64,000 nucleotides of DNA from Dehalococcoidia bacterium. GTDB taxonomy: Bacteria; Chloroflexota; Dehalococcoidia; Lucifugimonadales; Australimonadaceae. The notes under the pieces are model-generated. The model searched no databases and was not told the DNA's origin. It worked only from the letters and a program-made list of their open reading frames with translations. This document shows positions 11,575 to 64,000 of the stretch, one piece after another. The DNA lies in assembly GCA_034423175.1 (NCBI GenBank), contig DAOUJA010000034.1:6379-70378 (forward strand), given 5' to 3'. The number at the start of each line of letters is the position of its first letter. Position 1 is the first letter of the stretch. The translations under genes and the position numbers were made by a program.

Positions 11575-11581
11575 ACCCTAC

Positions 11582-11649
11582 CGTCATTCCCGCACAGGCA
11601 GGAAGCCAGGGTGCGCGGGCAGCGCACGCGGGGAGGCTGGGTCGGGTGG
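11582..11649 (+). repeat. Family-B REP/MITE-like element
   Basis: cgtcattcccgcacaggcaggaagccagggtgcgcgggcagcgcacgcggggaggctgggtcgggtgg. Confidence 0.8.
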
Positions 11650-11715
11650 CTTCGTCGGCTTGCGTTGCTACCACCATCTCCGCCATCCCGCCACCGCGCG
11701 GGCAGGCTGAAGCCG

Positions 11716-11877
11716 TCACCTTCTCCTGCCGAACAGCACTGATAGCAGGACGAGCACGACGATGCCGACGCCTGCGATCCCGGCAGCCCATTCCTGCCCC
11801 GACACTACGAGGACAAGGGCTATGAACGTTACGACTACGATGCCGGCAACAAGAGATTGAAAGGTAGGTGGGAACAT
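11716..11877 (-). CDS. Candidate 53-aa two-TM membrane peptide (below the ORF-track cutoff)
   Basis: Hand translation: MFPPTFQSLVAGIVVVTFIALVLVVSGQEWAAGIAGVGIVVLVLLSVLFGRRR. It lies in a locally AT-richer patch. Its start is 5 nt after the stop of the preceding small ORF. Confidence 0.35.
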   Translation of the reverse strand: MFPPTFQSLVAGIVVVTFIALVLVVSGQEWAAGIAGVGIVVLVLLSVLFGRRR

Positions 11878-11882
11878 TCTGG

Positions 11883-12044
11883 TCACTCGGTGATGCGGAG
11901 TAGAGCAGTGACTATGGCGGCCGTAGAACCTATGCCTGCCAGAATCATAAGGGCAACTTCGGCCTTGGTCGCGTAGTGCTTCAAGGTGCGGTCAAGCTCC
12001 TCCCGCAACTCAGCGCGAGTGATAGGGTGCTCTCCCGTTGACAT
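11883..12044 (-). CDS. Candidate 53-aa peptide: charged N-terminal helix plus a C-terminal TM segment
   Basis: Hand translation: MSTGEHPITRAELREELDRTLKHYATKAEVALMILAGIGSTAAIVTALLRITE. GGAGGG lies about 12 nt upstream of the ATG. Confidence 0.4.
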   Translation of the reverse strand: MSTGEHPITRAELREELDRTLKHYATKAEVALMILAGIGSTAAIVTALLRITE

Positions 12045-12121
12045 GGTCTAACGCTTCCCTCCGCTGCCTTGAATCTCATGCGGAGAATAGCGCAGACGAA
12101 CTGACACTGCCAGGTACGCCC

Positions 12122-13474: not shown

Positions 13475-13583
13475 GGAGCGATGCTACCGCCGCGCCGCGT
13501 CCTTTGCCACAGCGGGGTTCCGGGCGCCTCCGCGATGGCGTTCCCGATGAGCGGAGCGGGCATTGCGAGGCGGGCGAACGCCG

Positions 13584-14870: not shown

Positions 14871-15175
14871 GGGATGTCCCTCCGTGGAAGTGCGTGGGAT
14901 TGTATATCCCTGGCCTCGAACCGGGTCGGCTGGATGGGCCCCCGCGCCCACGCACTCCCCTTCGCGGCGTAGTCATCACAGCGACACTGCTCTATTGCAG
15001 ACCTGAATCGCCTCCCCCATAATGAGGAACTACGCGTACAGCGCGCACCTGACCCTGTCGGACGAGCCGCAGGAAGATCGCTGCCCCCTCAGCGCAGAGC
15101 GAGGGGGCTCTTCATGTTAACCGGCAGCCCGTCATCCCGCTTTCGCGGGGACCCGGAGGCTTTGCCGTTAACGGG

Positions 15176-34347: not shown

Positions 34348-37300
34348 ATGGCGTCCGACAACGTCAGCCTGCTCCCGTTCCGTTGCCTCTCGCTCGACCT
34401 CGAAGTCCTGAAGGACGGCAGCCGCATCCGTGCCTTCGCCGGAGTGCGCTCGGACACCAATCGTTCTTTCTCCTTCTCAGGGACCGGGCACTCATGGGCT
34501 GATGCGTTCGTTAGACTGGACCGCTTTGCCGATGGGGTGGGCTTCCTGCTGGGCCACAACCTGATCGCTTTCGATCTGCCCCACCTGCGCGCTGTGAACC
34601 CAAACCTCCGGCTGCTGCGGCTGCCTGCGGTGGATACGCTCAGGCTGAATCCTCTGGCTTTCCCCCGCAACCCCTACCACCACTTGGTTAAACACTACCA
34701 GGATGGACAGATCAAACGTGGACGCGTCAACAATCCCGAACTGGATGCAAGACTGACGCTGCAAGTACTCGAGAACCAGTTGACAGCATTTCGCGACGCC
34801 CCACCTGGCCTTCTAGCCGCTTGGCACTGGCTGACCACGGTTGAGGACGGCACCGGGTTCGACAAGGTGTTCGGATCACTGCGGGGCTTGCCTCGACCGT
34901 CCAATGCCGAGGGGCACGATGCTATACAGGCACAACTGGAAGGGAACTCCTGCCGGACGCAGGCACGTGAGGTCATGGCGCGTCCGAATGAACATGGCTG
35001 GGCCCTCGCCTACGTGTTGGCTTGGTTGTCCGTATCGGGAGGCAATTCGGTCATGCCTCCCTGGGTGCGGTATCAATTCCCTGAAGCAGGCCAACTGGTG
35101 CGCCTGTTGCGGGACACGCCCTGCGCCGACATCGACTGCTTGTGGTGCGCCGAACGGCACGACGCGCGCAAGGAACTGGCACGCTGGTTCGGGTTCAGTG
35201 GATTCCGTCCTGAGCCTGCGGACGAAGCCGGACGCTCCATGCAGCAGTCCGTCGTAGAGGCTGGGATGGCGGGGGAGCACACACTGGCCATCCTGCCGAC
35301 CGGCGCGGGGAAATCGCTCTGCTATCAGGTTCCAGCGCTGTCCCGTTACGACAAGACCGGCGCATTGACGGTAATCATCTCGCCGCTGGTCGCCCTCATG
35401 GCCGACCAGGTGGCGGGCCTGGAGAAACGGGGCATCGATTCCTGCGTCACTATCAACAGCCTCTTATCCATGCCTGAGCGAGCCGACGCTCTTGACCGGG
35501 TGCGGCTGGGAGACGCCGGGCTCCTCATCATTTCACCTGAGCAGTTGCGCAGCGTTGCCGTGCGCCGCGTTCTGGCGCAAAGGGAGATAGGCACCTGGGT
35601 GCTGGACGAGGCACACTGCCTCTCCAAGTGGGGGCACGACTTCCGGCCGGACTACCGCTACGTCGGGCGGTTCATCCGCGAGCGGGCCGGAAACGAGACT
35701 GTGCCGCCGGTGTTGTGCCTGACTGCAACCGCCAAGCCAGACGTGCAGGCGGAGATTGTTGACTACTTCCAGAGAGAACTCGGAATCGCGCTCAAGGTCT
35801 ACAACGGCGGTACTGAGCGCGCCAACCTCGAATTTACGGTGATACGGACGAGCACCAGCGAGAAGTTCGAACATATCCACCAGATCATAGAGTCCGATCT
35901 GCCGGCGCATGAACCCGGCGGAGCGATCGTCTACTGCGCAACCCGGCGGCACGCTGAACGGGTCGCCGGGTTCCTGCGTGAAAAGGGAATCCAGGCAGAC
36001 TACTTCCACGGGACATTGCCACCGGAGACCAAGAAGAACGTTCAGGAGAGTTTCATCGAGGGCGGCCTGCGCGTCATCGCCGCCACCAACGCCTTCGGCA
36101 TGGGCATCGACAAGCCGGACATCCGCCTCGTGATTCACGCAGACATCCCCGGTTCTCTGGAGAACTACTTGCAGGAAGCGGGCAGGGCAGGGCGCGACCA
36201 GCAGGCAGCTCGCTGCGTACTGCTGTACACGATGGACGACGTGGAGCGGCAGTTCGGGATGTCGGCCCATTCGCGCCTCACACGGCGGGAAGTCCACGGC
36301 GTCCTGAAAGCGCTGCGTAATCTCAACAAGAGGAACCGCTCGAACGGCGAAGTGGTGGCCACATCGGGCGAGATACTCATTGGGGACGAAGACCACGAAT
36401 TCGAGCGCGATAAGGCGACTGACGATACGCGGGTGCGCACGGCAGTAGCATGGCTGGAAGAAGCGCAACTGCTGACACGCGAGGAGAACCGCGTGCAAGT
36501 GTTCCCATCTTCCCTGCGGGTGCGTTCTCTGCAAGAAGCAAACGCCAGGCTCGCCAAGGCGCGCGTAGGGGACGCCGGCCGCCGCCAATTGCTGAAAATC
36601 GCCGAAACGCTGTTCGAAGCGGACCCGGACGAAGGCATCTCAACCGACGAATTGATGTCCGCATCCGGCCTCACTCCCGAAGGAGTACGGAGCGCTCTCC
36701 ATGACCTTGAGCGGCTGGGCATCGCCGCCAACGATACGGCCCTGACCGCCTTCGTCCACGAGAGAGTGAAGGGCAATTCCCGGCAGCGCTTCGATGAGGC
36801 GGCGGAGCTGGAGCGCGCCATGGTCGACCTCTTGCGCGAGACCGCGCCCGATATGGGGATAGGTGAAACGTCCACGCTTTATCTCCGTCAGGCGAGCCAG
36901 CGGTTGAAGGACGACGGCTACAAGAATGCTCTGCCGGAACGCTTGCGCCGCATCGTCCGGAGCATCGCTGCAGACGGTCGTGGCGACGGCGGAGGTGGCG
37001 GCAGTCTCGGCCTGCGCGGGGTGAATCGTGACGCCGTCCAAGTGACACTGCAACGCGAGTGGGGAATATTGGAGAAAACCGCAGGGTTGCGCAGGGCCGC
37101 CGCAGGGCGGCTTCTAGCCCACCTGCGCGCCTGTCTCCCTGCCGGAAGCAGAGGCACGGATCTGCTGGCTGAGACAACCGTCGGAGACCTGCTGAAGGCG
37201 CTCACCTCGGACATGACGCTGATGCAGGAAGTCAGGGAACCCAACAAGTTGATGGATCGTGCGCTGCTGTGGCTGCACGAACAGGATGTGGTCCGCCTGA

Positions 37301-39456
37301 ACAAGGGTCTTGCCGTGTTCCGCCCGGCCATGACCATCCGACTGAAGCAAGAAAGGCGCGGCTTCGCCCGGACCGATTTCGAACCGCTGAATCTCCACTA
37401 CAACGAACAGACGCTCCAGATCCACGTGATGGCGGAATACGCAGTGCGGGGCCTGACAGCCATGGCCGATGCCCTGCGCATGACCGTGGATTACTTCAAC
37501 CTGCGCAAACGGGACTTCGAGCGCCGCTGGCTGCCGGAGCGAGAAAAAGAACTCTTCCGCCAGACCACCCCTGAATCATGGCAGGCCATCGTCGAGAGCC
37601 TGAACAACCCTGTGCAGCGCAGTGTCGTAGCGGACGAAAGGGAGCAGGCCAACGTGCTGGTGCTTGCCGGTCCCGGCTCCGGGAAGACGCGGGTGCTGGT
37701 GCACCGCATCGCCTACCTCGTGCGCGCGATGCGCGAGAACCCCCACTCTATCCTCGCTCTCGCGTACAACAGACATGCCGCCGTAGATATCCGGCGCCGT
37801 TTGGCGGAACTCATCGGCGACGACGCTCGCGGCGTGGTGGTGCTCACCTGCCACGCGCTCGCCATGAGTCTTGCCGGCGCGAGTTTCACAGGGCGTGCGA
37901 ATGACCTGGACGACGCCGAATTCAAAAAGATACTCAAGGAAGCGGTGTCCCTGTTGCGCGGGGAAGGACTGCCGCCCGAGGAAGTGGACGAACAGCGGAC
38001 GCGGTTGCTCGCAGGCTTCCGCTGGATACTGGTTGACGAGTACCAAGATGTCGGCCCCGACGAGTATGCGCTGATCTCGGCGCTGGCGGGCAGGACGCTC
38101 TCCGAAGAAGACGACAAACTGAGCCTCTTCGCGGTGGGCGACGACGACCAGAACATCTATACCTTCAAGGGCGCGTCGGTGCGGTTTATCCGGCAGTTCG
38201 AGAAGGACTACGCAGCCAAACCGGTGTTCCTCACCGACAACTACCGCTCCACCAGCCACATCATCGCGGCTGCAAACGCGATAATCGAACCGGCGAAGCA
38301 ACGGATGAAGAACGGGCATCCCATTCATGTAAACCAAGTGCGTAAGAAGGAACCGCCTGGTGGCGTGTGGGTTCAACGCGATGCGGTTGCGCAAGGCCGG
38401 GTTCAGACATTGCCGGTTGGGGATTCGCGAATCTCCCAGGCGCAGGCAGTCGTCGCCGAGTTTCAGCGACTATCCAGCCTGACACAGGATTGGGATTGGG
38501 CTTCCTGCGCCGTGATAGCGCGCGAATGGAGTTACTTGGACCCGGTGCGCAGCCTCTGCGAGATCAAGGGCATCCCCGTGCAGATGTCGAACGAGGACTT
38601 CTCGGGCATCTGGCGCCTGCGGGAAACGCAGGCTCTCCTGCAGTGGGTGCACGAGCGAGACTCCCGCTTGATAACGAGCGCGGAACTGAACGACTGGCTG
38701 GAAAGGCAAACCTACGGCTCTTGGAACGAACTGCTGCTCGAAGCCGTGGGCGAGTATGCACTGGAGACCGGCGGCGCGGAAACGCCGGTAGCACACTTCG
38801 TCGAGTGGCTGGCGGAATGGGCGCGGGAGGTACGCCGCCGTCAGCGCGGGTTATTGCTGACCACTGCTTATGGCGCCAAGGGTCTGGAGTTCGACCATGT
38901 CGCGGTGCTGGACGGAGGGTGGGAGCGCGTTGAATACAGGGATGCCGATTCCCAGCGCCGGTTGTACTACGTTGCGATGACTCGCGCCCGTCAGACGCTT
39001 ACCCTTGCCCGCTTCCCGAGGCCACACCCATTCCAGGACGCCTTGCCGGACAGCCCGGCAGTGCTACACAGGGATGAACCCTTGTCGCTCCCGGCCCCCG
39101 CGCCGGAACTCACACGCACTTACCGCCGCCTCAGTCTAGGGGACGTTGATTTGGGTTTCGCGGGCCGCAAACGTTCGGCCGACCGTGTCCACCGCGCCAT
39201 TGCCTCGCTTGCACCAAGCGATCCATTGACGGTTCGCGTTCAGTCACACCCCTGGGAGCTTGTGGATTCGACAAGCACAGTGGTGGGGCGACTCGCGCAT
39301 CGCTTCGAGCCCGATGCCGGTATGCGGTGCATCGCCGCCAGCGTCCTTGCGGTTGTCACCTGGAATCACGAGATTTCAAGCCCTGAGTACCAGAGTGGTA
39401 TGCAGTGTGAATCGTGGGAGGTCGTGGTGCCAGAACTGGTATTCGAGCCTGAGTAG
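34348..39456 (+). CDS. 1702-aa fusion: DnaQ-like 3'-5' exonuclease + RecQ-family helicase + ~450-aa unknown linker + UvrD/PcrA-like SF1 helicase + ~140-aa unknown C-terminal domain
   Basis: Exonuclease motifs: LSLDLEV, GHNLIAFDLPHL, NPELDARLT. RecQ motifs: LAILPTGAGKS, LDEAHCLSKWGHDFRPDY, ATNAFGMGIDKPDIRLVIHADIPGSLENYLQEAGRAGRD. UvrD motifs: VLAGPGSGKT, ILVDEYQDVGP, FAVGDDDQNIYTFKGA, LTDNYRST, TAYGAKGLEFDHV, YVAMTRAR. Confidence 0.9.
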   Translation: MASDNVSLLPFRCLSLDLEVLKDGSRIRAFAGVRSDTNRSFSFSGTGHSWADAFVRLDRFADGVGFLLGHNLIAFDLPHLRAVNPNLRLLRLPAVDTLRLNPLAFPRNPYHHLVKHYQDGQIKRGRVNNPELDARLTLQVLENQLTAFRDAPPGLLAAWHWLTTVEDGTGFDKVFGSLRGLPRPSNAEGHDAIQAQLEGNSCRTQAREVMARPNEHGWALAYVLAWLSVSGGNSVMPPWVRYQFPEAGQLVRLLRDTPCADIDCLWCAERHDARKELARWFGFSGFRPEPADEAGRSMQQSVVEAGMAGEHTLAILPTGAGKSLCYQVPALSRYDKTGALTVIISPLVALMADQVAGLEKRGIDSCVTINSLLSMPERADALDRVRLGDAGLLIISPEQLRSVAVRRVLAQREIGTWVLDEAHCLSKWGHDFRPDYRYVGRFIRERAGNETVPPVLCLTATAKPDVQAEIVDYFQRELGIALKVYNGGTERANLEFTVIRTSTSEKFEHIHQIIESDLPAHEPGGAIVYCATRRHAERVAGFLREKGIQADYFHGTLPPETKKNVQESFIEGGLRVIAATNAFGMGIDKPDIRLVIHADIPGSLENYLQEAGRAGRDQQAARCVLLYTMDDVERQFGMSAHSRLTRREVHGVLKALRNLNKRNRSNGEVVATSGEILIGDEDHEFERDKATDDTRVRTAVAWLEEAQLLTREENRVQVFPSSLRVRSLQEANARLAKARVGDAGRRQLLKIAETLFEADPDEGISTDELMSASGLTPEGVRSALHDLERLGIAANDTALTAFVHERVKGNSRQRFDEAAELERAMVDLLRETAPDMGIGETSTLYLRQASQRLKDDGYKNALPERLRRIVRSIAADGRGDGGGGGSLGLRGVNRDAVQVTLQREWGILEKTAGLRRAAAGRLLAHLRACLPAGSRGTDLLAETTVGDLLKALTSDMTLMQEVREPNKLMDRALLWLHEQDVVRLNKGLAVFRPAMTIRLKQERRGFARTDFEPLNLHYNEQTLQIHVMAEYAVRGLTAMADALRMTVDYFNLRKRDFERRWLPEREKELFRQTTPESWQAIVESLNNPVQRSVVADEREQANVLVLAGPGSGKTRVLVHRIAYLVRAMRENPHSILALAYNRHAAVDIRRRLAELIGDDARGVVVLTCHALAMSLAGASFTGRANDLDDAEFKKILKEAVSLLRGEGLPPEEVDEQRTRLLAGFRWILVDEYQDVGPDEYALISALAGRTLSEEDDKLSLFAVGDDDQNIYTFKGASVRFIRQFEKDYAAKPVFLTDNYRSTSHIIAAANAIIEPAKQRMKNGHPIHVNQVRKKEPPGGVWVQRDAVAQGRVQTLPVGDSRISQAQAVVAEFQRLSSLTQDWDWASCAVIAREWSYLDPVRSLCEIKGIPVQMSNEDFSGIWRLRETQALLQWVHERDSRLITSAELNDWLERQTYGSWNELLLEAVGEYALETGGAETPVAHFVEWLAEWAREVRRRQRGLLLTTAYGAKGLEFDHVAVLDGGWERVEYRDADSQRRLYYVAMTRARQTLTLARFPRPHPFQDALPDSPAVLHRDEPLSLPAPAPELTRTYRRLSLGDVDLGFAGRKRSADRVHRAIASLAPSDPLTVRVQSHPWELVDSTSTVVGRLAHRFEPDAGMRCIAASVLAVVTWNHEISSPEYQSGMQCESWEVVVPELVFEPE

Positions 39457-48238: not shown

Positions 48239-49057
48239 CTATTCTTCACAGACTATGCCGTCACCATCCCCATCGATTGCGGACGGCACAAGGGCTTGGG
48301 GAAACCCATAGCCGCCGCCAGGATATTCCCCAGTGTATTGATGCCGACCCTGTTCACGGGGCTCGCCGGCCGCATCAGCAGCGGCGCAGGAAACATAGGC
48401 TTTCGGCTCCAGTTTCTCTGTAGGTTCAGCACGCTCGAATAGGCCTACCTGCGAAAACACCGAACGGGAAAGCTCCGTACCGTTTACGCCGCATGCGGAT
48501 GAACCTGCCTGCGTTACTGACGGAGTGCAATGCACCGAACCGCCTTCTACGGATAAAGTTCTCCACTCCTCCTCGGACAAGGGTCCGATCAGAATGTGCT
48601 GGCCACCCCAGTACACATACGCGAATATGTCATTAGTAAAGGTATTCCGCTTCCAAGTGGTATTGGGAGCATCTGGAACCAGATACACCGTAAGGACCTC
48701 TTGATCGCCCGACACGAAAGACCTCGTTATCGGCGTCGGCGTTGGATCAACTGGCAAAGGAGTGGCTATCACTATCGTTGGACGAGGCCTGCCCCATGAC
48801 TCCGGCGTTGGGGTTGATGTGGGCTGTTGCGTTGGAGTAGGTTCGGCTTTCGGTGTTGGACTCAGAACAGCGGGAGTAGACGTCGGGATTGGAACTGCCG
48901 TAGCTGTAGCAGTTGCTGTGGCTATTGCCTTAGCGGTTGCTGTGGCTGTTGCCGTCGGCTCCTCTGTCACGGTCGTCGCGGCAGCGCTGCATCCTGCCAG
49001 AAGCACTCCCCCAACCAGTAGCACAACCGCTATCAACGCTGGCTTCATCACTCGCAT
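48239..49057 (-). CDS. Lipoprotein with a PT/TA-rich linker and a C-terminal Excalibur calcium-binding domain
   Basis: MRVMKPALIAVVLLVGGVLLAGC (lipobox). C-terminal ...IDGDGDGIVCEE. The 3' half is visibly lower in GC. Confidence 0.7.
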   Translation of the reverse strand: MRVMKPALIAVVLLVGGVLLAGCSAAATTVTEEPTATATATAKAIATATATATAVPIPTSTPAVLSPTPKAEPTPTQQPTSTPTPESWGRPRPTIVIATPLPVDPTPTPITRSFVSGDQEVLTVYLVPDAPNTTWKRNTFTNDIFAYVYWGGQHILIGPLSEEEWRTLSVEGGSVHCTPSVTQAGSSACGVNGTELSRSVFSQVGLFERAEPTEKLEPKAYVSCAAADAAGEPREQGRHQYTGEYPGGGYGFPQALVPSAIDGDGDGIVCEE

Positions 49058-49986
49058 ACCACGCCGTCGTTGTCCCGGTCGTCCATGAACCGATAGGCCG
49101 GGTGGCCGCGGGGGACAGGCGCGATGCCGTGACGCCGCGCCTCCGCGCAGGTGATGCGGCCGTTCCCGTTGTCGTCGTACAGCCGCAGGGCATCGACGTT
49201 GGACGCACTCCCTGACGAGGGGGTCGGCGTCGCGACCTGAAGCGCGCGCGAACGGTCGACGACCATCGCGGTCGACGCGCAGCCCGACAGGACGCCTTCC
49301 AACACGTCGCGCTCGCGCCTGTCGATGGTGAGGTTGTACCGCTGGCGCACCTCGACCACGCGGCCCGCGAACCAGCACTGGTTCAGGTCGGGAAGCCACT
49401 CCGCCGCGTCCTTTCCGCTCTTCTGCGAGCGATTGACCGAGGGGCTGGCCAACGTGAGGTTCAGGAGGTCGGAGGAGAACCGGCGCCTGGTCGCAGCGTC
49501 CGTGGCACAGAGGCCGCTGTCGTGCGCCTCCGACCGGGCGATGATGTGCTCGATATCGGTCTGGGAGGTGCTGTCGAACCAGGTGCCCGTGTACGGGCCG
49601 TAGACGATGCCGCCCATGCTCGCCACGATGCGCGGCTCCACCGACTGCGAGTAGGAGTAGTCGTCGGAATCGTATGGCGAGCAGCGATGTTCGGCGGCGA
49701 CGGCAAGTCCCCGCCAGGTACCCGAGCCGACCGTTATCTGCGGCGTCGAGAGTGATAGGACCGGCGTAGGCGTGGCCGCAGGCGGCACGGGCGTGACAGC
49801 AGCGGATGCAGGTGTGGCCGCAGGCGACGCGGGTGTCGCCGTCGGAGCGGGAAGCCGCTGGTCTGCCGGAGGCGGCGTCGGCGTGGGAGTGCTCTGCTCA
49901 CAGGCGATCAGGGTCGCAGCAAGCACCAGGGCAGCGGGTGCGCAGAACCAGAGTCGTATATCTCCAGGTACGGATACGATAGACAC
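49048..49986 (-). CDS. Secreted lipoprotein: DUF1524/HNH-type nuclease domain plus a C-terminal Excalibur domain
   Basis: GTG 49986, with signal RLWFCAPAALVLAATLIAC. DIEHIIARSEAHDSG...NLTLASPSVNRSQKSGKDAAEW is DUF1524-like. C-terminal DDRDNDGVVCE. Confidence 0.7.
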   Translation of the reverse strand: MSIVSVPGDIRLWFCAPAALVLAATLIACEQSTPTPTPPPADQRLPAPTATPASPAATPASAAVTPVPPAATPTPVLSLSTPQITVGSGTWRGLAVAAEHRCSPYDSDDYSYSQSVEPRIVASMGGIVYGPYTGTWFDSTSQTDIEHIIARSEAHDSGLCATDAATRRRFSSDLLNLTLASPSVNRSQKSGKDAAEWLPDLNQCWFAGRVVEVRQRYNLTIDRRERDVLEGVLSGCASTAMVVDRSRALQVATPTPSSGSASNVDALRLYDDNGNGRITCAEARRHGIAPVPRGHPAYRFMDDRDNDGVVCE

Positions 49987-50140
49987 TGGCGAGATTCTAC
50001 TGTGGTCTGCATGAGTTCTACTACAACCGCCGGGGCACTCGAACCTCGGTACGGCACTCACGGGGCATGCGCCCCTTACGAGATACGGGCCGCATCCGCT
50101 ACGCTGGCTACACCGAGCACCGTCCGAGGAGGAGGACAAC

Positions 50141-51106
50141 ATGACCCAGCAGCCCGTTCCCGCGATCCGATTCGGAGCGTCGTGGTCGACGCAGTTCCGG
50201 TTCACGCAGGCCATCGGCCGCGGGCTCAGCGAGCTGAAGCGGGTCGATGCCACGGTACACGTCCTCGGCCCCGGCGGCATGGGCGCGCTCGTCAACGGCG
50301 CGGTGGACGTCATCTTCTCCAAGTGGGTCGTCAACGAGCACCGCTACACGGGCACGGGCATATTCGCCGGGGACAAGCCCGACGACTGGCTGCGGACCAT
50401 CGCGTGGCTACCGCAGGAAGACCGCTTCCTCTTCGCGATGGCCCCGTGGACGGGCATCGAGTCGTTCGAGCAACTCGCGGCTGAGAAGCCGGTACTGCAC
50501 ATGGCGGGGAGCGGCGCCGAGGTCGTGCTCCAGGAGTACGGCTTCAGCTACGCCGACATCGAGCGGTGGGGCGGCTCGGTGGGGCGCATGGAGCACACGG
50601 CGCGCGACGCCAAGGCCCGCTACGACGCCGGACAGCTCGACGCCTTCTGGGGCGACGGCAGCGCGTACGACTTCTCGGCGTGGCCGTGGGTCGGCTCGCG
50701 CGGTTACCGCTTCCTCGACATCAGCGAGGAGGTCATGCAGCGGCTGGAGGCGAAGGGACTGCGACGCCAGGTGACGCCCGCGGGCTTCGTCCCCGGCATC
50801 GACAGGACGCTCACCGCGCTGGACGACTCGCACATCGTGGTGACGTGCCGCGCCGACCTCGACGACGAGCTGGCCTACCTGCTCGCGAAGGCCATCGACG
50901 ACAAGAAGCGGGACATCGAACTGACGTCGATCCAGATCGACTACGACAACGGGGAGGCCGGCGGCCTGCCGATGATCAGGCCGACGTACTGGTCGTCGCT
51001 CACGGGGCCTATCGGCCGCCAGTGGGACGAGGGCATCACGGGCGCACCGCTGCACGAAGGCGCGCGGCGTTACTACCGGGAGCAGGGGTACCTGCAGGGC
51101 CGCTAG
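50141..51106 (+). CDS. Periplasmic-binding-fold protein (TAXI/NMT1-like) without an evident signal peptide
   Basis: 321 aa. The resemblance to TAXI-type solute receptors is weak and pattern-level only (e.g. ...GAPLHEGARRYYREQG at the C-terminus). Confidence 0.5.
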   Translation: MTQQPVPAIRFGASWSTQFRFTQAIGRGLSELKRVDATVHVLGPGGMGALVNGAVDVIFSKWVVNEHRYTGTGIFAGDKPDDWLRTIAWLPQEDRFLFAMAPWTGIESFEQLAAEKPVLHMAGSGAEVVLQEYGFSYADIERWGGSVGRMEHTARDAKARYDAGQLDAFWGDGSAYDFSAWPWVGSRGYRFLDISEEVMQRLEAKGLRRQVTPAGFVPGIDRTLTALDDSHIVVTCRADLDDELAYLLAKAIDDKKRDIELTSIQIDYDNGEAGGLPMIRPTYWSSLTGPIGRQWDEGITGAPLHEGARRYYREQGYLQGR

Positions 51107-54781: not shown

Positions 54782-56155
54782 GTGCTCACTGCCGCGGCTA
54801 CGAGCACGCTTCTGGGCACGTCAGACTTCTCCATAGTCGCGATCGCGCTCCCCGCCTTCACCGAGGTATTCAGCGCGTCGACTTCAACCGTCGTCTGGAT
54901 AGCCCTGTCCTACCAGCTCATAGTGCTGGGCCTGGCGTTGCCGATGGGCCGCCTGGGCGACCAGTTCGGCAACAAGACCGTCTTTGCCGCCGGAGCCCTC
55001 ATCTATACGGTTGGCCTCGCGAGCGCAGCCGCTGCGCCGGGCATCCTGACCCTCATCGCCTTCCGGGCGGTGCAGGGCGCCGGCGCGGCGATGATGGTCT
55101 CCCTCTCGCTGGGGCTGGTGTCGAACGCGTTTCCGTCCAACGAGCGCGGCAAGGCGCTGGGGCTCATAGCGTCGGTTGCCGGTTTCGGGCTGATGTCCGG
55201 GCCCGCGCTCGGCGGACTCCTTCTCGATACGCTGGGCTGGCGCTCCATCTTCTGGATGCGCGCGCCGTTCGCCTTCGCCGGGTTCGTACTCGCCATGGTC
55301 TACCTCAGGAACATGCGGGCGACCGCGGACAAAGGGACCGACTTCATGGACGCCGCGGCGCTGTTCGCGGCGCTGGTCCTTATGGCGGTCGGGTTGAACC
55401 GGGGTTCCGCCGAAGGCTGGACGTCGCCCCTGGTGCTGGCGGCGGTCCCGCTGAGCGCTACCGCCCTGGCAGCGTTCGCGCTCCGCTCGGTCCGCATAGC
55501 GAGCCCGGTCGTGGACATACGGATGTTCCGCAACCCCGCCCTCTCCCTCTCCAGCGGCCTGATGTTGATGGCCGGCGTATCGATGATGGCCGTCACGTTC
55601 ACGATGCCGTTCTACCTCCTCCTCGCGCACGGTCTCTCACCGGCGGCGGCCGGGCTCGTGATGCTGGCGCACCCCGCCGCGATCCTCGTGCTCCCGCCCT
55701 TCACCGGCAGGCTGTCCGACCGGATCGGCCCGAGGGTGCCGACGTCCCTTGGGCTGGGCCTGTCGGCGTCGGCGCTCTTCCTGCTGACGACGCTGCTCCC
55801 GACCACTCCCGTCCCGGTCATCGTGGGCATCCTGATGCTGGGCGGCATCGGCGGGTCGTTCTTCCAGGCGCCCAACCAGAGCGTGATCATGAGCGCGGCG
55901 CCGCGGGACCGCGTCGGTACGGTCTCCGCCCTCGTCCCGACCCTTCGCTACATCGGCATAATCACCGGCGTGGCTGCCTCCGAGGCGTTATTCACCACGG
56001 GACTGGGGACGCCGGGGCTGAGCGGAGCGGATGCGGAGACCGTGACGGCAGCCGCACGGACGGTCTTCATCGTCTTCGGTTGCGTGGCTTCCGCGGCCGC
56101 GCTGATAGCGCTCTTCCGCAACGGCGGACGGGTATCACCCGGCGGCAGCGCCTAG
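54782..56155 (+). CDS. MFS transporter (DHA2/EmrB-like); the true start may be upstream (ATA 54737)
   Basis: DFSIVAIALP, GRLGDQFGNK and LIAFRAVQGAGAAMM motifs with multiple TM segments. See the finding on start codons. Confidence 0.85.
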   Translation: MLTAAATSTLLGTSDFSIVAIALPAFTEVFSASTSTVVWIALSYQLIVLGLALPMGRLGDQFGNKTVFAAGALIYTVGLASAAAAPGILTLIAFRAVQGAGAAMMVSLSLGLVSNAFPSNERGKALGLIASVAGFGLMSGPALGGLLLDTLGWRSIFWMRAPFAFAGFVLAMVYLRNMRATADKGTDFMDAAALFAALVLMAVGLNRGSAEGWTSPLVLAAVPLSATALAAFALRSVRIASPVVDIRMFRNPALSLSSGLMLMAGVSMMAVTFTMPFYLLLAHGLSPAAAGLVMLAHPAAILVLPPFTGRLSDRIGPRVPTSLGLGLSASALFLLTTLLPTTPVPVIVGILMLGGIGGSFFQAPNQSVIMSAAPRDRVGTVSALVPTLRYIGIITGVAASEALFTTGLGTPGLSGADAETVTAAARTVFIVFGCVASAAALIALFRNGGRVSPGGSA

Positions 56156-57344: not shown

Positions 57345-58757
57345 TTGAACAGCACCGGTTCTCGGCACTATGACGCGGCGATAATTGGCGCTGGCCCAGT
57401 AGGTAGCCTGTGCGCACTCGCCTACGCGCGCAGGGGTGCCCGGGTAGCCCTGTTCGAACAGAACCCCACCGAACATCAAACAGGACTGAAGGGCGAGTGG
57501 CTGCATCCACCCGCCTCGCGGATACTGGAACAGACCGGGGTCCGTTTCGATTCGGAGGCCCACGCCACCAAAGGGTTCGTGGTGTTTCCGGAGGATGGCT
57601 CTGAGCCAATCCCGCTGACCTACCCGGACGGGTCGCACGGCCTGGTATGCCCGCACGAAACCCTCGTCTTGCGTCTGCGCGAGGCTGCCAATGACGAGCC
57701 CAACGTCGACCTCATACAGGCGCGGGCCTACCCGCTCCATGACGGCAGGGTCACCTACGGCCGGGACGGCACCCGGGAATCCGTGACCGCAGACCGGATC
57801 GTCGGCGCAGACGGCCGATCGTCCGCCGTGCTGCGAATGTTGGGGCTGACAACAAAGCCCACGGTCTGTTCGCGCATGATAGGAATCAGGGTGAACGGAG
57901 TGAAGTTGCCCGCGGACGACTACGGGCACATCTTCTGTGGCGGCCCCGGCCCCATATTCATGTACAGGTTGGGAGAGGACAGCGTTTGCGCCATTATGGA
58001 TATCCCGCGCGAATACTCGGGCCGTCACGCCGACGGCCTGTTGTTGAATTCGTATATCCCCTGGCTGCCGCCGGATATCAGATCGTTGTTCGTGGAAGCG
58101 GTGCGCAAGCGGCGCTTCAAGCGCGCCGGAAACATGATCAGACCGCGCATCTCGTACGGTAACTCGCGTTTCGTTGTTATCGGCGATGCGGTCGGGCACT
58201 ACCATCCGATGACGGCGGTGGGACTGACCCTCGGTTTCGGCGATGCCGTGGCGCTGGCGGAGAGCGAGGACTTCAGCGGTTTCGTCGCCAGGCGCTTCGA
58301 GGAGGTCCGCGCGCCCGAGATGCTTGCCATGGGGTTCTATGAGGTATTTGCCGATCATCGGGCCGAGGCAGTGGCGCTCAGGCATGCGGTCTATCGGATA
58401 TGGAGGAAGGGCGGTGGGAACACCGATCGCAGCATCCGTTTGCTCGCTTGTGAAGATACGTCAGAGGCCAGTCTGGGCTTCATCGGCGGCATAGTGGTTG
58501 CCCTGGCTGTTGCGAGAGCGATTCCGATGTCCATGAGCCCACGCGCCTGGCGCCGGGCAGGCGGCATCGTTCATCGCCTTGCCCTTCGCATCGGATGGTT
58601 CATGAGGGCCGTTTGCGAACTACGCAGATTGAGAGCCAGAGGCGAAGTTCGGCACGAGCGATTCCATGGCAGCCTGGAGCGTGCCTTTCTGACCTCCACG
58701 CCACCCCAGGGCCGCTTCAGCCAACCGCGTGACCAGGAGCATGCCGGTGCACCCTGA
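57345..58757 (+). CDS. FAD-dependent monooxygenase, squalene epoxidase-like
   Basis: IIGAGPVG. GEWLHPPASRIL resembles GELLQPGG. VGADGRSS. GDAVGHYHPMTAVGLT resembles GDAxNMRHPLTGGGMT of squalene epoxidases. TTG start. Confidence 0.78.
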   Translation: MNSTGSRHYDAAIIGAGPVGSLCALAYARRGARVALFEQNPTEHQTGLKGEWLHPPASRILEQTGVRFDSEAHATKGFVVFPEDGSEPIPLTYPDGSHGLVCPHETLVLRLREAANDEPNVDLIQARAYPLHDGRVTYGRDGTRESVTADRIVGADGRSSAVLRMLGLTTKPTVCSRMIGIRVNGVKLPADDYGHIFCGGPGPIFMYRLGEDSVCAIMDIPREYSGRHADGLLLNSYIPWLPPDIRSLFVEAVRKRRFKRAGNMIRPRISYGNSRFVVIGDAVGHYHPMTAVGLTLGFGDAVALAESEDFSGFVARRFEEVRAPEMLAMGFYEVFADHRAEAVALRHAVYRIWRKGGGNTDRSIRLLACEDTSEASLGFIGGIVVALAVARAIPMSMSPRAWRRAGGIVHRLALRIGWFMRAVCELRRLRARGEVRHERFHGSLERAFLTSTPPQGRFSQPRDQEHAGAP

Positions 58758-60681
58758 TGCCCATTCCGCCTTGAGGATGGCGACCGAGGGCTTGCTGCAC
58801 CTCCAGGATGAGGATGGCAGCTTTGAGGGTGAAGTGGTGTGGTGCCCCATGCTCTCCGCGCAGTACGTGCTGCTGCACCATATCCTCGGCCGTCCGCTCG
58901 AGCCCGCCCGCCGCCGCGGCGTGTTGCGCTACTTCCAGCGGTCCCGCCTGGAAGGAGGCCTGTGGAGCCTCCACGAGCACGAACCGCCCAGCCTGTTCGT
59001 CACTGCACTGGTCTACGTCTCGGCCAGATTGCTCGGCGTCGAGCGGGAGGACCCGTTGATCGAACCGGCTCGGCGGTTCCTGCAGAAAGAGGGAGTCCTC
59101 GGGATCCCCACCTGGGGTAAGTTCTGGCTGGCGCTTCTCAATCTCTACGACTGGCGCGGCGTCAATGCCATCCTGCCGGAGGTGTGGGGCCTGCCCCGTT
59201 GGATGCCGTTGCATCCTTCGCATTGGTACTGCCATACGCGGCTCATCTACATGGGAATGGCATCCCTTTACGCGCATCGCTTCCAGGCGCCCGTAACGCC
59301 CCAGATCGCCTCCATAAGAGAAGAGCTGTACCCCCAGGGGTTTGCCGACGCCGATTTCGCTGCGAGCCGCAATCGCCTGCGCGACGCCGACCTGCACACC
59401 AGGCCAAGCGTGTGGCTCCGCGCCGGGTTCGGTCTCGCACGCCTCTTCGATCGGTTGCACAGCAAGCGCCTGCGCGCCCGCTACCTGGAGGCGATCGTCC
59501 GCAGCATCAGATGGGAGCTTCAGACCACCAACCATACGAGCATATCTCCCGTCAGCGGGATACTGAACATCCTTGTCCTGTGGCTGCGCGACCCCGAAGA
59601 TGCCGACGGACTCCGCGCCCTCGCACAGTTGGACCGCTGGATCTGGGAAGACGACGAGGGAGGGTTGCGCGTCTCCGGGGCCAGAAGCGCCTCCTGGGAT
59701 ACTGCCTTCGCCTTGCAAGCGCTGTCGACGGCGTCCGAACTCGACGGGGTCCGCGATGCGCTCCGCAGCGGGGCGAACTACCTTCGCGGACAGCAGATCG
59801 GCATCAGCTTCGAAGGGTATCGAGAGGCCTATCGGAACGACCCCAACGGCGGCTGGTGTTTCGCCGCGGGGTGGCACGGCTGGCCGGTGACCGACTGCAC
59901 CGCCGAGGCGGTCCTTGGGCTTCTCTCTGCCGACAGGGACGCAGCGGACGAGACGGCACTGGGCGACGCGGTCCGGTTCATGCTGCGGGGCCAGAATCGA
60001 GATGGCGGTTTCGGCACGTACGAAGCGCAGCGCAGCGTGGTTGGCCTCGAGTGGCTGAACCCGGCCGAGATGTTCGGGGACTCCATGACGGAGCACTCCT
60101 ATGTCGAGTGCACCGCCTCTTGTCTTGCGGCCCTGGCGGCTTGCGGAGAGCGCTTCCCCCGGGTCATCGGCCAGGCGGAAACCAGGGCCATCTCACGGGC
60201 CGACGCATGGCTACGCCGCGCCCAGGAGCGAGACGGCTCCTGGCGCGGGGTATGGGGCGTTCAGTTCATCTATGGCACGTTCTTCGGGATAAGGGGTCTG
60301 CTTGCCGCTGGCGCTCGTCCTGACGATCCAGCCCTGCGCTCGGCCTGCCAGTGGCTACTGGACCGTCAACGGGAAGACGGGGGATGGGGCGAGCACTACC
60401 GGGGTTGCTACACCGGCCGGTACGTCGCGCACGAAGAGGGCCAGGTCATCCAGACGGCGTGGGCAATGATCGCGCTCCTCGAGGCGGGCGCCACGGACTG
60501 GAACGCGATCACGCGGGGCGCTCAGTTCCTCGCAGGCATGCAGAGGGAGGACGGGACATGGCCCAGGCAGGACATGGCCGGGATATTCTTTCGCACCGCA
60601 CTCCTGGACTACGCGCTGTATCGCCAGTATTTTCCCCTGCATGCTCTCGGTCTCTACGCGCAGCGCCGCCTGGCAGACTAG
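58741..60681 (+). CDS. Oxidosqualene cyclase (lanosterol/cycloartenol synthase family)
   Basis: Catalytic motif WHGWPVTDCTAE (DCTAE, not the DxDDTA of squalene-hopene cyclases). QW-type repeats (RDGSWRGVWG, EDGGWGE, EDGTWPR). AGGAG lies before ATG 58741. It overlaps the epoxidase gene end. Confidence 0.88.
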   Translation: MPVHPDAHSALRMATEGLLHLQDEDGSFEGEVVWCPMLSAQYVLLHHILGRPLEPARRRGVLRYFQRSRLEGGLWSLHEHEPPSLFVTALVYVSARLLGVEREDPLIEPARRFLQKEGVLGIPTWGKFWLALLNLYDWRGVNAILPEVWGLPRWMPLHPSHWYCHTRLIYMGMASLYAHRFQAPVTPQIASIREELYPQGFADADFAASRNRLRDADLHTRPSVWLRAGFGLARLFDRLHSKRLRARYLEAIVRSIRWELQTTNHTSISPVSGILNILVLWLRDPEDADGLRALAQLDRWIWEDDEGGLRVSGARSASWDTAFALQALSTASELDGVRDALRSGANYLRGQQIGISFEGYREAYRNDPNGGWCFAAGWHGWPVTDCTAEAVLGLLSADRDAADETALGDAVRFMLRGQNRDGGFGTYEAQRSVVGLEWLNPAEMFGDSMTEHSYVECTASCLAALAACGERFPRVIGQAETRAISRADAWLRRAQERDGSWRGVWGVQFIYGTFFGIRGLLAAGARPDDPALRSACQWLLDRQREDGGWGEHYRGCYTGRYVAHEEGQVIQTAWAMIALLEAGATDWNAITRGAQFLAGMQREDGTWPRQDMAGIFFRTALLDYALYRQYFPLHALGLYAQRRLAD

Positions 60682-60693: not shown

Positions 60694-62730
60694 TCAAACC
60701 CGGACCTCATGCCGCCTTTCCTTGATGACGAACTTGACTTTCTTGCTGAGGGACAGCGTCGGAAAGGGGCTGATGCGCAGTCTGGCGTCCGGTGGCGACA
60801 GATCGAACGTGAAGTGGTGCGCCAGCATCAACACGTTGAGAGCGATGTGCATCTCGGCCCAGCGGCTGCCTATGCACTTGTGGGTGCCCAGGCCGAAGGG
60901 CGCATAGCCCGGACTGAAGTGCTCGTTGCGCGGCGGCAGATAGCGGTCGATGTCAAACGTGAAGGGGTCCGGAAAAGCGTCATCCATGTAGTGCGAGGCG
61001 CTCTGGGCGATCACCACACGCGCGCGCAGTGGGAGTTCATAGCCCTGGACGTTGCAGGTGTTCATGACATTGCGCATCGTGAAGGCGGTAATGGGTGTCA
61101 GCCGCAGGGCCTCCATCAGCACGCGGTGTGTGACGTCGATCCTGTCCGGCCTCAGGTCTTCACCGGCAGGGTCGCCATCGGCGAACAGTGCGTCGGCCTC
61201 CGCCTGCACACGCCTGTAGATGTCGGGGTTCGATGCCAGGTAGAAGAAGATGAAGCTGATCATGTCAGCGAGGTACATGCCGGTCAGCAGCGCGGTCCCG
61301 AGCGGAAAGCCGAAGTCGGTTTCCGGGAGGAACTGCGGGTCGTTGGCATGGAGGGCGAAGAAGCCGTCGACGACGTCCGGGGGGGCGCCGAGGCGCTGGG
61401 CCGGGGTGTGGTTGGCCTCGATGCGCTCGACTATCTGTTGGTTCAGCTTCGCACGGCGCTTCATCTTCGGCGTCTTCAACATGAACTTGGGTAAGAGGCC
61501 CGCGACGTGAGTGAGGAGCGCGCGCTCCTTGAATTGCAGGAGGTCTTCGACCACCTCCTGGGTCTCCTGGCTGACCAGGAGCGGGGACATCTGTGCATTC
61601 ATGTACAGCCGGAGCACCGACCTGGCATGGATGACGTCGCCGGCAGCCCACGACGACAAGTGCCGGCGCGCGTTGTGATAGACCTCGTCGAGGCGGCGGA
61701 CCAAGGTATCAGGCGAGTATGAGGACCTCAGAGCCTTGCGAAAGCGGAAATGGTCGGCGCCATCGGTGGAATGTATGGTGCGGGAGACGCCGTACGCCGC
61801 CTCGATGCTGGCCAGATACTCCTTGGAGCGCAGGTACAAGCGGCCATTCCGGTGGATCCAGCGGTTCACTTCGGTCCCGGCGAGGAAGATGTAGGACTTC
61901 TTCGAAAACGGGGGGCGCAGCTCAAACACCGGTCCATACTGCTTGGCGAGGTCGGCAAAGAGGGCCGGGAGGTTGCCGGACCTTACGTGGCGATTGAACA
62001 GCATCTTGCGTAGAGAGATGCGCGGGATCTTCTTCGTGAGGGGCGAGCGCCGCAGGTGGAACCCGGTGATGTTGCTACTCACCGCCTCGCTGATGGAGCG
62101 GGCGATGACGTCCATCTGGCAGACCAACTTGACGCGCTGCCCGGCCTCCTCGTCGAGGGGCAGGATAGAGTGAATGACATTGCAGGCGTTGAGGAGGGCG
62201 ATCGTAATGACGTCGCGGGGGTCAGGGATATCGCCCCCGAGGATGACGCCGTGGATGCGCGTTCTGATGAAGGCAACTCCGTCGCTGTTGCGGGCATCCG
62301 CGCGTGCCTCTATCTCATAAGCGGTGCGCGCCAAGGTCCAGAAGTCACCCTCGTGGTACTCCAGGAACTGGAGCCGGACCAGGTCGTTGAGCACGAGGTC
62401 GACGATCGTTTCCGCTTGTGGGACGAGCCGCTCGATCCAGTACTGCGTGCTGTGTTGTTCCGGCTCGCCGGCGATCTCCTCCAGGATGGGGTCCAGGATG
62501 GGTGAGCCGGTCGGAGTTCTGTCGTTGAGGAACAGGGATTCTGTGTCGGTGTCGATGCGAAATCGGAGGGAAAGTTCTGCCAGCACGGCCCCGATGATGG
62601 TGCAATTGAGGCTCCAGCCCGGCACCTGGTGAAAATAGCCGCTTTCCTCATTGAGGAGCATCAGCACCAGCTCTTCAGGCAGGGAGAGAGAATGGTGGTT
62701 GATCGTGCTCGAAGCTGAACTCGTCATCAC
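60694..62730 (-). CDS. Fusion protein: N-terminal GPP34/GOLPH3-like domain plus a cytochrome P450
   Basis: aa 15-215: LPEELVLMLLNEESGYF...IIGAVLAELSLRFRI...PILDPILEEI (GPP34 pattern). aa 250-678: P450 with ExxR (EALR) and heme loop FGLGTHKCIG. Confidence 0.88.
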   Translation of the reverse strand: MMTSSASSTINHHSLSLPEELVLMLLNEESGYFHQVPGWSLNCTIIGAVLAELSLRFRIDTDTESLFLNDRTPTGSPILDPILEEIAGEPEQHSTQYWIERLVPQAETIVDLVLNDLVRLQFLEYHEGDFWTLARTAYEIEARADARNSDGVAFIRTRIHGVILGGDIPDPRDVITIALLNACNVIHSILPLDEEAGQRVKLVCQMDVIARSISEAVSSNITGFHLRRSPLTKKIPRISLRKMLFNRHVRSGNLPALFADLAKQYGPVFELRPPFSKKSYIFLAGTEVNRWIHRNGRLYLRSKEYLASIEAAYGVSRTIHSTDGADHFRFRKALRSSYSPDTLVRRLDEVYHNARRHLSSWAAGDVIHARSVLRLYMNAQMSPLLVSQETQEVVEDLLQFKERALLTHVAGLLPKFMLKTPKMKRRAKLNQQIVERIEANHTPAQRLGAPPDVVDGFFALHANDPQFLPETDFGFPLGTALLTGMYLADMISFIFFYLASNPDIYRRVQAEADALFADGDPAGEDLRPDRIDVTHRVLMEALRLTPITAFTMRNVMNTCNVQGYELPLRARVVIAQSASHYMDDAFPDPFTFDIDRYLPPRNEHFSPGYAPFGLGTHKCIGSRWAEMHIALNVLMLAHHFTFDLSPPDARLRISPFPTLSLSKKVKFVIKERRHEVRV

Positions 62731-64000
62731 TACGACCCTTCCTGTTGCCGTCTGTATATCGCCTCGATTTCCTCGTCGAGCGTGATCGACCAGGTTTCCA
62801 CCATCGAGCGCAGCCGCATATTCTGGTACGCGCCCCAGATCGTCATAGCAGAGGGCACCAGCAGCACTGACAGGATCAGCGAATAGGCAATCGTAATCAC
62901 CACCGTGAAGCCGAACTGCTGTAGCGCAGGGACCGGCGAGAGGATCAACACGCCGATCCCGCCGCCCGTGGTCAGGGCAGAACCCAGGAGGGCAGAGCCG
63001 GTCGTTTTCAGGGTGCGGACCGCCGCTATCTGGGGATTGCGAAGGTGGCTGTACTCCTCCCGGTATCTATGGATGATATGTATCGTGTAATCCACGCCGA
63101 TCCCGATCGAGAGCGCCGTGATGGTTGCAGTTACGATGGTGTAGGGGATCCCGAGCAGCGCCAGCGTGCCGAGTATCCAGATCAGGACGAGCACGATAGG
63201 CCCGACGGCGATGAAGGCCAGCATCGGTTGACGGAGTGTCGCCCAGAAGAACACGAACAGGATGCCGAGGGCCACGGCGATCGTAGCCGCTATCGCTTCC
63301 GTTTGACGGCTCGTCATCTCTTCCGTCACCGTAACCGAGATAACGCTTCCCGAAGCAACCGTGACGGCATCATCTTCACCGAACCAGAGCCCTTCGATCT
63401 CTCCCTGCAGGACCTTCGTTTGATCCGGATCGTTCGTGGAGGCCGGGAACTGCAGCAGGAACGCATCGATGCCCTGCGGATCGTTGACCAGCAGACGCGC
63501 GGCGGCAGGGTCTCTCGCCTCGAGCCTGTCCAGGAATTCCTGCATCAGCACTGGATCGAAATGCACCCCGGACGTGGCTTCTTCGAAGAGCGCGGCGAGT
63601 TCCGGGTCATACTTATCCCCGGGCTCGCCGGAGTCGTCGGTCCAGTCCTGCACGAAGTACTCGAAAGAAGCCTGGATCGGTCCTGACGCCGCCTGCGGCC
63701 GTTTCCATTCGTCCTCGAAAGAGGTCGTCAGATCGTGCAGGCTCACCAGTGTCCGGGTCTCCGTGGCCTCTGCACGCAGGAGCACATTGGCGATCTCCGA
63801 TGAACCGCCGATGGCAGCATCCAGTGTCTCCCAGTCATCCGCGACGCTCCCGCCACTGGGAAGAAGGTCCAGTATGCTGAACCGCGCTTCGATCTGCGTC
63901 GCCGCGCCCCCCAGTACCATAGACAGCGCCAGTATGGCGACGAGATAGGGCATGGGTCTACGCGTGACGCTTCCCCCCACCAGTTCCGCGGCCCGGTCGA
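62730..64000 (-). CDS. MMPL/RND-family transporter (HpnN-like), C-terminal half; the gene continues past the window end
   Basis: TM segment, ~200-aa soluble loop, then 5 TM segments containing LSIGIGVDYTIHIIHRY. The frame is open to position 64000. Its stop overlaps the P450 start by 1 nt. Confidence 0.8.
   Translation of the reverse strand, partial: DRAAELVGGSVTRRPMPYLVAILALSMVLGGAATQIEARFSILDLLPSGGSVADDWETLDAAIGGSSEIANVLLRAEATETRTLVSLHDLTTSFEDEWKRPQAASGPIQASFEYFVQDWTDDSGEPGDKYDPELAALFEEATSGVHFDPVLMQEFLDRLEARDPAAARLLVNDPQGIDAFLLQFPASTNDPDQTKVLQGEIEGLWFGEDDAVTVASGSVISVTVTEEMTSRQTEAIAATIAVALGILFVFFWATLRQPMLAFIAVGPIVLVLIWILGTLALLGIPYTIVTATITALSIGIGVDYTIHIIHRYREEYSHLRNPQIAAVRTLKTTGSALLGSALTTGGGIGVLILSPVPALQQFGFTVVITIAYSLILSVLLVPSAMTIWGAYQNMRLRSMVETWSITLDEEIEAIYRRQQEGS

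Follow-up and report, generated by a model that had tools for sequence, protein, structure and literature searches.

A candidate sterol-tailoring cytochrome P450 fused to a GOLPH3-like domain and encoded beside an RND exporter gene

The 64,000-nucleotide stretch of DNA analyzed here (hereafter, the window), from contig DAOUJA010000034.1 of a Dehalococcoidia bacterium, carries near one end a gene in which a GPP34 domain, the domain of eukaryotic GOLPH3, is joined to a cytochrome P450. The locus raises the questions of which molecule this P450 acts on and what a GOLPH3-like domain does in a bacterial enzyme. The explanation that we favor, with a probability of roughly 0.55, is that the product is a sterol-tailoring P450 whose step follows that of the neighboring cyclase and is linked to export by an RND pump, and that the GPP34 domain holds the enzyme at the membrane or at a membrane partner.

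The fusion protein and its family

The gene reads as a single open reading frame (ORF) of 678 codons from a GTG at 62730, without an internal stop. The public gene call, P0001, starts at the ATG at 62727, one codon downstream of the GTG, and encodes 677 amino acids. Residue numbers are those of P0001, and the Pfam ranges follow the numbering of the 678-residue ORF (P0001 + 1). The parts of the gene are as follows.

60694..62730, minus strand: GPP34–P450 fusion gene
62080..62682, minus strand: GPP34 (GOLPH3/Vps74-like) domain, residues 17–217, Pfam PF05719
61975..62079, minus strand: inter-domain stretch, residues 218–252, a short hinge of low confidence and, after it, a conserved basic segment (KKIPRISLRK...)
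60748..61974, minus strand: cytochrome P450 domain, residues 253–661, Pfam PF00067
61264..61287, minus strand: I-helix segment LTGMYLAD
60868..60897, minus strand: heme-binding loop FGLGTHKCIG, with an invariant Cys ligand

A preliminary description, made from the sequence alone, had proposed an uninterrupted 678-residue ORF consisting of GPP34 and a complete P450, and the Pfam analysis bore this out. The N-terminal domain matched PF05719 over profile positions 1–198 of 201 (101.8 bits against a cut-off of 29.1, E 6.6e-29), which settles the doubt about profile support for GPP34, and the P450, which is complete, matched PF00067 (113.9 bits, E 1.1e-32). The heme-binding loop, the ExxR motif and the I-helix stretch were all found where that description had placed them. 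The ExxR motif reads EALR, and its Glu and Arg are invariant among the relatives. The predicted model of the full-length protein has a mean predicted local distance difference test score (pLDDT) of 80.8 and a predicted template-modeling score of 0.80. The P450 domain has an isoelectric point (pI) of 9.25, and residues 218–262, which include the linker conserved among relatives, carry a net charge of +9. Sequence-based prediction found neither a transmembrane segment nor a hydrophobic N-terminal signal peptide in the fusion protein. The product is a two-domain enzyme, predicted to be cytoplasmic, and a member of the published GPP34_L family described below.

The fusion is widespread. A search of 5.8 billion proteins gave more than 2,000 matches, of which the best 120 were examined; all 119 full-length proteins among these carry PF05719 and PF00067, at 56–86% identity, and upwards of 120 protein clusters share the architecture. 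When a single genome of each species was scanned, 33 loci from independent assemblies were obtained, several of them on complete chromosomes; the orthologue on one complete chromosome (OZ244813.1) is 86% identical. An exhaustive HMMER search of 1.84 billion representatives recovered approximately 47 full-length fused representatives at 26–47% identity. The preliminary description had cautioned that the junction might be an assembly or frameshift artefact joining two genes. The recurrence of the single ORF in the clusters and independent loci, the conserved linker and the distant representatives rule this out, leaving it a practically negligible probability.

The 33 loci belong to Dehalococcoidia, Acidimicrobiia, Nitrospirales, Thermodesulfobacteriota/Dadabacteria, Poribacteria, Latescibacteria and Longimicrobiales metagenome-assembled genomes (MAGs). 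Nearly all are MAGs from lineages reported as sponge symbionts, and several bear sponge-project names. The closest relatives of the window protein are from sponge-associated MAGs, and some loci come from the Ircinia MAG set of Kelly et al. (2022, PMC9531527). The same architecture, PF05719 plus PF00067 in Dehalococcoidia, Acidimicrobiia, Nitrospirota and other lineages, has been named GPP34_L by Ferreira et al. (2025, Microbiome, PMC11706023), who described 656 proteins, all from sponge symbionts of many phyla. The architecture is common and already published, and the earlier view that it was undescribed does not hold. What appears to be new is the association of the family with sterol clusters and with RND pumps, the lack of conservation in the phosphatidylinositol 4-phosphate (PI4P) pocket and the deletion in the I-helix of a subfamily; none of these three points was found in the literature searched, nor was any paper linking GPP34 to bacterial sterols. 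In the main text of the GPP34_L paper, the words sterol and squalene do not occur, and neither the I-helix deletion nor the pocket loss is described. We also observed two fusion genes (L040:572-11998; see also L041) on a contig from a sample named TARA_SAMEA6039926, one of them followed by an OEP-MFP-AcrB efflux system. With a distant member in a TARA-named sample, the restriction of the fusion to sponge symbionts, as published, may not be strict.

Sterol genes and exporters around the fusion genes

The genes next to the fusion in the window are the following.

62730..64000, minus strand: 3' part of an RND (MMPL/HAE3-type) transporter gene, 822 amino acids, extending past the window end
58747..60681, plus strand: oxidosqualene cyclase, convergent with the fusion gene, with the ORF open from 58729
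57345..58757, plus strand: squalene epoxidase (flavin-dependent monooxygenase with the SE domain, PF08491), overlapping the cyclase start by 11 nt
54782..56155, plus strand: MFS transporter, a homologue of which adjoins the fusion in L008, L010, L012 and L031

The TAG stop of the transporter gene shares 1 nt with the GTG start of the fusion gene, and the ATG of the latter begins 2 nt after the stop. On the other side, the TAG stop of the cyclase ends at 60681 and the stop of the P450 occupies 60694–60696, leaving a gap of 12 nt. Both the coupled start and the 12-nt gap agree with the preliminary description. The cyclase has the N- and C-terminal SQHop_cyclase domains, matches TIGR03463 at 725 bits and contains the DCTAE motif. 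The window holds the pair of a DCTAE-type cyclase and a squalene epoxidase by which a bacterial sterol cluster is recognized. The active site of the cyclase (58747-60681) reads H-G-W-P-V-T-D-C-T-A-E. We take its Val to be at the position typical of lanosterol synthases and its His to be at that typical of cycloartenol synthases, which presumably makes a mixed signature for the product type. The MFS transporter may be a further member of the system.

In order to compare the surroundings of the fusion genes, ORFs were called in all loci and clustered, the recurrent clusters were named by Pfam and NCBIfam, and a sterol-type gene was counted if it lay no more than 10 kb from the fusion. At least one sterol-pathway-type gene was found in 27 of the 33 loci. 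The assignment is unambiguous in 21 of them, and in the other six the counted gene is only a Rieske/KshA_C oxygenase, whose link to sterols we infer. The remaining six loci have no sterol-type gene, three of these being on truncated contigs. An RND exporter lies beside the fusion in 20 of the 33. The contexts follow the clades of a neighbor-joining tree, with sterol linkage in at least four different arrangements. The sterol or triterpenoid link, which had been suggested from the window, is much stronger than the window alone could show, the family being found in sterol clusters of several phyla.

The clade of the window (the window, L001–L007, L026 and L028; 66–86% identity) is monophyletic in this tree. 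In nine further loci, the genes for RND pump, fusion, cyclase and epoxidase stay next to one another, with their order and orientation shuffled; L028 is cut within the fusion gene, and the pump alone is visible there. Because the four genes stay adjacent though order and orientation differ, the module argues for functional linkage and not for inherited gene order. The Thermodesulfobacteriota/Dadabacteria loci (approximately 50% identity) contain one to three tandem copies of the fusion, with an ERG4/ERG24-family reductase, a sterol methyltransferase (PF08498, Sterol_MT_C), an amine-oxidase-like flavoprotein, a LolA-like protein and an RND pump as neighbors. The reductase (PF01222; match to PDB 4quv at E 5e-32) is directly beside the fusion in 11 loci. 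Two or three tandem fusion paralogues beside the reductase and sterol methyltransferase genes were observed in six loci from Thermodesulfobacteriota MAGs (L013, L016, L019, L023, L024 and L033; positions ~7000–16700 in each). A third group (L008, L009, L010, L012, L029, L031 and L032) has a Rieske/KshA_C oxygenase, an LppX-like lipoprotein, an MFS transporter and an RND pump, and L008 additionally carries a methyltransferase.

The Nitrospirales locus L011, in which the fusion is accompanied by a pump and a methyltransferase, also contains a canonical CYP51 (YQFTVPIFGRGVAYD, FAGQHTS, FGGGKHVCMG) directly upstream of an ORF for a fused squalene epoxidase–cyclase (L011:17431-22025, minus strand). 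This CYP51 lies approximately 9 kb from the genome's own fusion gene. The pair matches the published clusters of sponge symbionts, namely the ERG24-CYP51-LSS "CSG" sterol cluster (Kelly et al. 2022, PMC9531527) and the msb cluster of a Melophlus symbiont, in which msbD is described as a lanosterol 14-demethylase homologue and msbE is a fused epoxidase–cyclase (PMC7074536). The CSG and msb clusters resemble our loci in habitat, lineages, oxidosqualene cyclase, sterol methyltransferase, sterol reductase and Rieske oxygenases. They differ in that their CYP51 is canonical, that msbE and its L011 equivalent are fused, and that the GPP34–P450 and its RND partner lie outside their description. We considered whether the "CYP51" of Kelly et al. 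is in fact the GPP34–P450 fusion and rejected this, given that msbD adjoins msbE and that the canonical CYP51 of L011 adjoins an epoxidase–cyclase fused in the same way. The 5.9 kb that Kelly's cluster spans would be explained by a fused epoxidase–cyclase of the msbE type.

RND lipid exporters tied to lipid synthesis include HpnN for hopanoids, BstA for sterols and the mycobacterial MmpL proteins with LppX. The window transporter gave weak matches to the HAE3, MMPL, HpnN and BstA models; carriers of the LppX-like and LolA-like kinds are found repeatedly in related loci. To our knowledge, no RND lipid-exporter system has a GPP34–P450 coupled to the pump gene. The distant fusions (30–40% identity) adjoin tripartite RND pumps of the AcrB type, or are followed by sulfotransferases. 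Two fusions at 33–36% identity (L035:7106-11362 and L036:8360-11589) have a canonical I-helix (AGLHT and AGIDT) and one or two sulfotransferase genes immediately after them, an arrangement that may reflect hydroxylation with subsequent sulfation. Sulfated sterols are known from sponges.

The P450 and GPP34 domains

When a profile of the family was compared with the PDB, the heme domain of Methylococcus capsulatus CYP51 was the top match for the P450 (93 bits, E 1e-25, aligned end to end), followed by taxadiene hydroxylase, human CYP51 and CYP120A1. Foldseek with the full-length model also placed Methylococcus CYP51 first (E 8e-15, template-modeling score (TM) 0.79), with CYP17A1, human CYP51, CYP120A1 and BM3 next at nearly equal scores, so that the fold comparison does not discriminate CYP51 from CYP17, CYP120 and BM3. 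The Methylococcus enzyme (PDB 6mcw, 7jj1 and 7snm), itself a CYP51–ferredoxin fusion, is similar in being a bacterial sterol-pathway P450 with an accessory domain. It differs in its partner, a C-terminal ferredoxin as against the N-terminal GPP34 of the window protein. The identity is only 21–22% to Methylococcus CYP51 and 24% to the CYP51 of L011, below the family rule of at least 40% for P450s. The CYP51 signature of the I-helix (AGQHTS, with its His-Thr) was not found in the fusion P450, and NCBIfam gave nothing but weak matches below threshold (82 bits for pentalenene oxygenase, for example, where 800 are required). Because of the low identity, the missing signature and the presence of a true CYP51 in L011, the P450 domain is, as judged from sequence comparison, a separate family near CYP51 and not a CYP51.

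The I-helix is unusual. A one-residue gap within the acid-alcohol motif, changing A-G-x-(D/E)-T to (T/A)-(G/S)-x-gap-Y, appears both in the HMMER alignments to CYP120 and CYP51 and in a MAFFT alignment made independently with canonical relatives. The window protein reads TGM-(gap)-Y, as compared with AGHHT in Methylococcus CYP51; the acid is lost and Tyr485 stands opposite the Thr. The tentative hand alignment of the preliminary description was essentially right. None of the 80 closest relatives departs from Tyr485 or Asp488, whereas most of the distant fusions and the stand-alone relatives of 450 amino acids retain AGxDT or AGxHT. The claim of an atypical I-helix stands for the window subfamily and fails for the fusions as a whole. 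Since most of the distant members and the stand-alone relatives keep the canonical motif, the alignments identify the deletion as a derived trait of the subfamily comprising the window and all 33 loci. The change may lead to altered proton delivery or to a reaction other than hydroxylation.

An HTPAQR motif (residues 440–445, approximately 61393–61410) is invariant or nearly so. It is placed directly after a modeled helix (residues 420–439) that we took to be in the F-G region, which is variable in P450s as a rule. The motif could lie at the entrance for the substrate or touch the GPP34 domain.

For the GPP34 domain, the family profile matched GOLPH3 (E 5e-5) and Vps74 (E 1e-3) in the PDB, and nothing else was significant. 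The model of the isolated domain is poor (pLDDT 53.6, from a 14-sequence alignment); with this low-confidence model, Foldseek returned GOLPH3 and Vps74 as the only matches at E <0.01 (probability 1.00, TM 0.40). The domain shares the family, the fold and a β-hairpin with GOLPH3 and Vps74 (PDB 3kn1, 9qpq and 2zih). Unlike them, it is far more acidic, is fused to an enzyme, is bacterial and without a Golgi context, and does not conserve the PI4P-pocket residues. The beta-hairpin of GOLPH3 inserts into membranes. In the window protein, the hairpin is predicted at residues 122–132 and bears a conserved HxGxFWT. The pocket of GOLPH3 consists of W81, R90, R171 and R174 (Wood et al. 2009). In the profile alignment with full-length GOLPH3, these residues correspond to Pro36, Ile45, Glu106 and Val109, the region of R171 and R174 being aligned with only moderate posterior probability. 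Trp38 sits two residues past Pro36. Across the family, Glu106 hardly varies. The net charge of the domain is -19, with a pI of 4.5, and the family mean is also -19. These replacements and this charge cast doubt on the lipid-headgroup-binding module that the preliminary description had envisaged. GOLPH3 binds the basic tails of membrane enzymes via an acidic groove (PMC13408441). The loss of the pocket residues, the acidity of the domain and the conserved hairpin, taken together with this property of GOLPH3, suggest by analogy that the bacterial domain may be a tether or adaptor rather than a phosphoinositide reader.

Weighing the explanations

In the explanation that we favor, the four-gene module of squalene epoxidase, oxidosqualene cyclase, RND exporter and fusion would make a tetracyclic, lanosterol-like triterpenol, oxidize it and pass it to the exporter. 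The P450 would be a distant offshoot of the CYP51 neighborhood that carries out a tailoring step after cyclization and not the canonical 14-alpha-demethylation. Its oxygen activation or reaction type would probably be non-standard, because the I-helix acid is lost and an invariant Tyr occupies the position of the Thr. The N-terminal GPP34 domain would sit where eukaryotic P450s have their membrane anchor; it would most likely tether the enzyme to the membrane or to a membrane partner, for example the co-translated RND pump, via the β-hairpin and the acidic surface, and would not read PI4P. Several points weigh against this explanation. The only pointer to the substrate is the gene neighborhood, no ferredoxin or reductase gene was found in the window's cluster, and four loci (L015, L022, L030 and L039) have no sterol genes nearby. 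Because generic AcrB-type efflux pumps accompany the distant members, what unites the family may be a hydrophobic molecule plus efflux and not a sterol. As to the tether, a strongly acidic domain binds anionic bacterial membranes poorly, and the loss of the PI4P pocket is read in part from the less certain region of the GOLPH3 alignment.

The GPP34 domain has been given a different role by Ferreira et al. (2025, PMC11706023), who proposed that it binds host PI4P and blocks phagosome maturation; the fusion would then be a released symbiosis effector acting on the host phagosome, and its P450 would be an accessory. The family has so far been reported from sponge symbionts only, nearly all of our loci are in MAGs of such lineages, and GPP34 is homologous to GOLPH3, a eukaryotic PI4P effector. 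The features of the protein itself point elsewhere, namely the replacement of R90, R171 and R174 by Ile, Glu and Val and of W81 by Pro (with the Trp two residues on), the net charge of -19 and the absence of a predicted hydrophobic N-terminal signal peptide. A P450 also requires heme and cytoplasmic electron donors. In addition, the gene lies among sterol genes and in translational coupling with an RND pump gene, and one relative is from the TARA-named sample. We consider an effector of this kind highly improbable, and prefer sterol tailoring to host-phosphoinositide binding because the fusion lies within clusters for sterol synthesis and lipid export. The GPP34 domain might instead be a carrier that extracts a sterol or another lipid from the membrane for the P450, and not a tether. 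The most conserved GPP34 stretch (LLNEESGYFHQVPGW) spans the region of the GOLPH3 ligand pocket, whose basic residues are lost, and genes for LolA-like and LppX-like lipid carriers recur in the clusters. We know of no GPP34 protein that binds sterols, however, and the poor model of the isolated domain (pLDDT 53.6) lends the idea little help; we regard a carrier as very unlikely.

With regard to the P450, these bacteria might use the fusion as their sterol 14-alpha-demethylase, in which case it would be a highly divergent CYP51 with an extra domain. CYP51 structures top both the profile and the fold matches, the heme loop GLGTHKC resembles GGGRHKC of Methylococcus CYP51, and an ERG4/ERG24-family reductase is immediately beside the fusion in the 11 loci mentioned above; no second P450 was found in the window's cluster. 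These similarities are offset by the identity of merely 21–24%, the small margin over the CYP120, CYP725 and CYP17 matches, and the absence of AGQHTS together with the deletion of one I-helix residue. Moreover, L011 has its canonical CYP51 in addition to its own fusion, and up to three tandem paralogues, or two different fusion clades, occur per genome. A demethylase is distinctly unlikely in our view. The P450 could also act on a hydrophobic compound of another kind (a terpenoid, a toxin or a sterol of the host, for example) that the RND pump then expels, the proximity of the cyclase being secondary. In agreement with this, the pump is the most general neighbor (20 of 33 loci), AcrB-type pumps lie beside distant members without sterol genes, and sulfotransferases follow other members. 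On the other hand, the epoxidase, cyclase, pump and fusion have been kept together through several rearrangements in the window's clade, and three further clades sit with the sterol-specific genes for sterol methyltransferase, ERG4/ERG24 and CYP51. A substrate other than the bacterium's own sterol seems to us unlikely, and sterol tailoring coupled to export is the explanation that we retain.

Two literatures meet in the fusion gene, one on GPP34_L as a marker of sponge symbiosis with a proposed part in phagosome evasion and one on symbiont sterol clusters of relevance to sterane biomarkers; in the literature searched, no paper connecting the two was found. If sterol tailoring and export are correct, the published mechanism of GPP34_L needs revision, bacterial sterol pathways gain an enzyme family with an odd active site, and a four-gene cassette expressible in E. 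coli offers a direct test of what the GOLPH3 fold does in bacteria. A broader proposal, which we offer tentatively and at odds well below even, is that the GPP34–P450 fusions might form a large, previously unrecognized bacterial family for sterol tailoring. The GOLPH3-like domain would couple a P450 acting on membrane lipids to an RND exporter, and the window subfamily, with a single Tyr for the oxygen-activation pair, would perform unusual sterol chemistry. The modified sterols would be exported, possibly to the sponge host. If true, this would bear on the origin of the unusual sponge sterols and on sterane biomarkers, and the GOLPH3 fold would have a bacterial function in lipid pathways that predates the Golgi.

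Some minor observations concern other genes. A 65-residue ORF upstream of the RND gene, beyond the window end (L034:607-804), was considered as a ferredoxin partner and rejected; it looks like the winged-helix portion at the C terminus of a response regulator and is probably a gene remnant. Elsewhere in the window, positions 34348-39456 encode a protein of 1702 amino acids with a DEAD/Helicase_C module and a UvrD-type helicase module, which may be a defence or repair gene. The protein encoded at 49048-50334 contains GmrSD_C (restriction endonuclease) and Excalibur domains, and its gene may likewise serve in defence.

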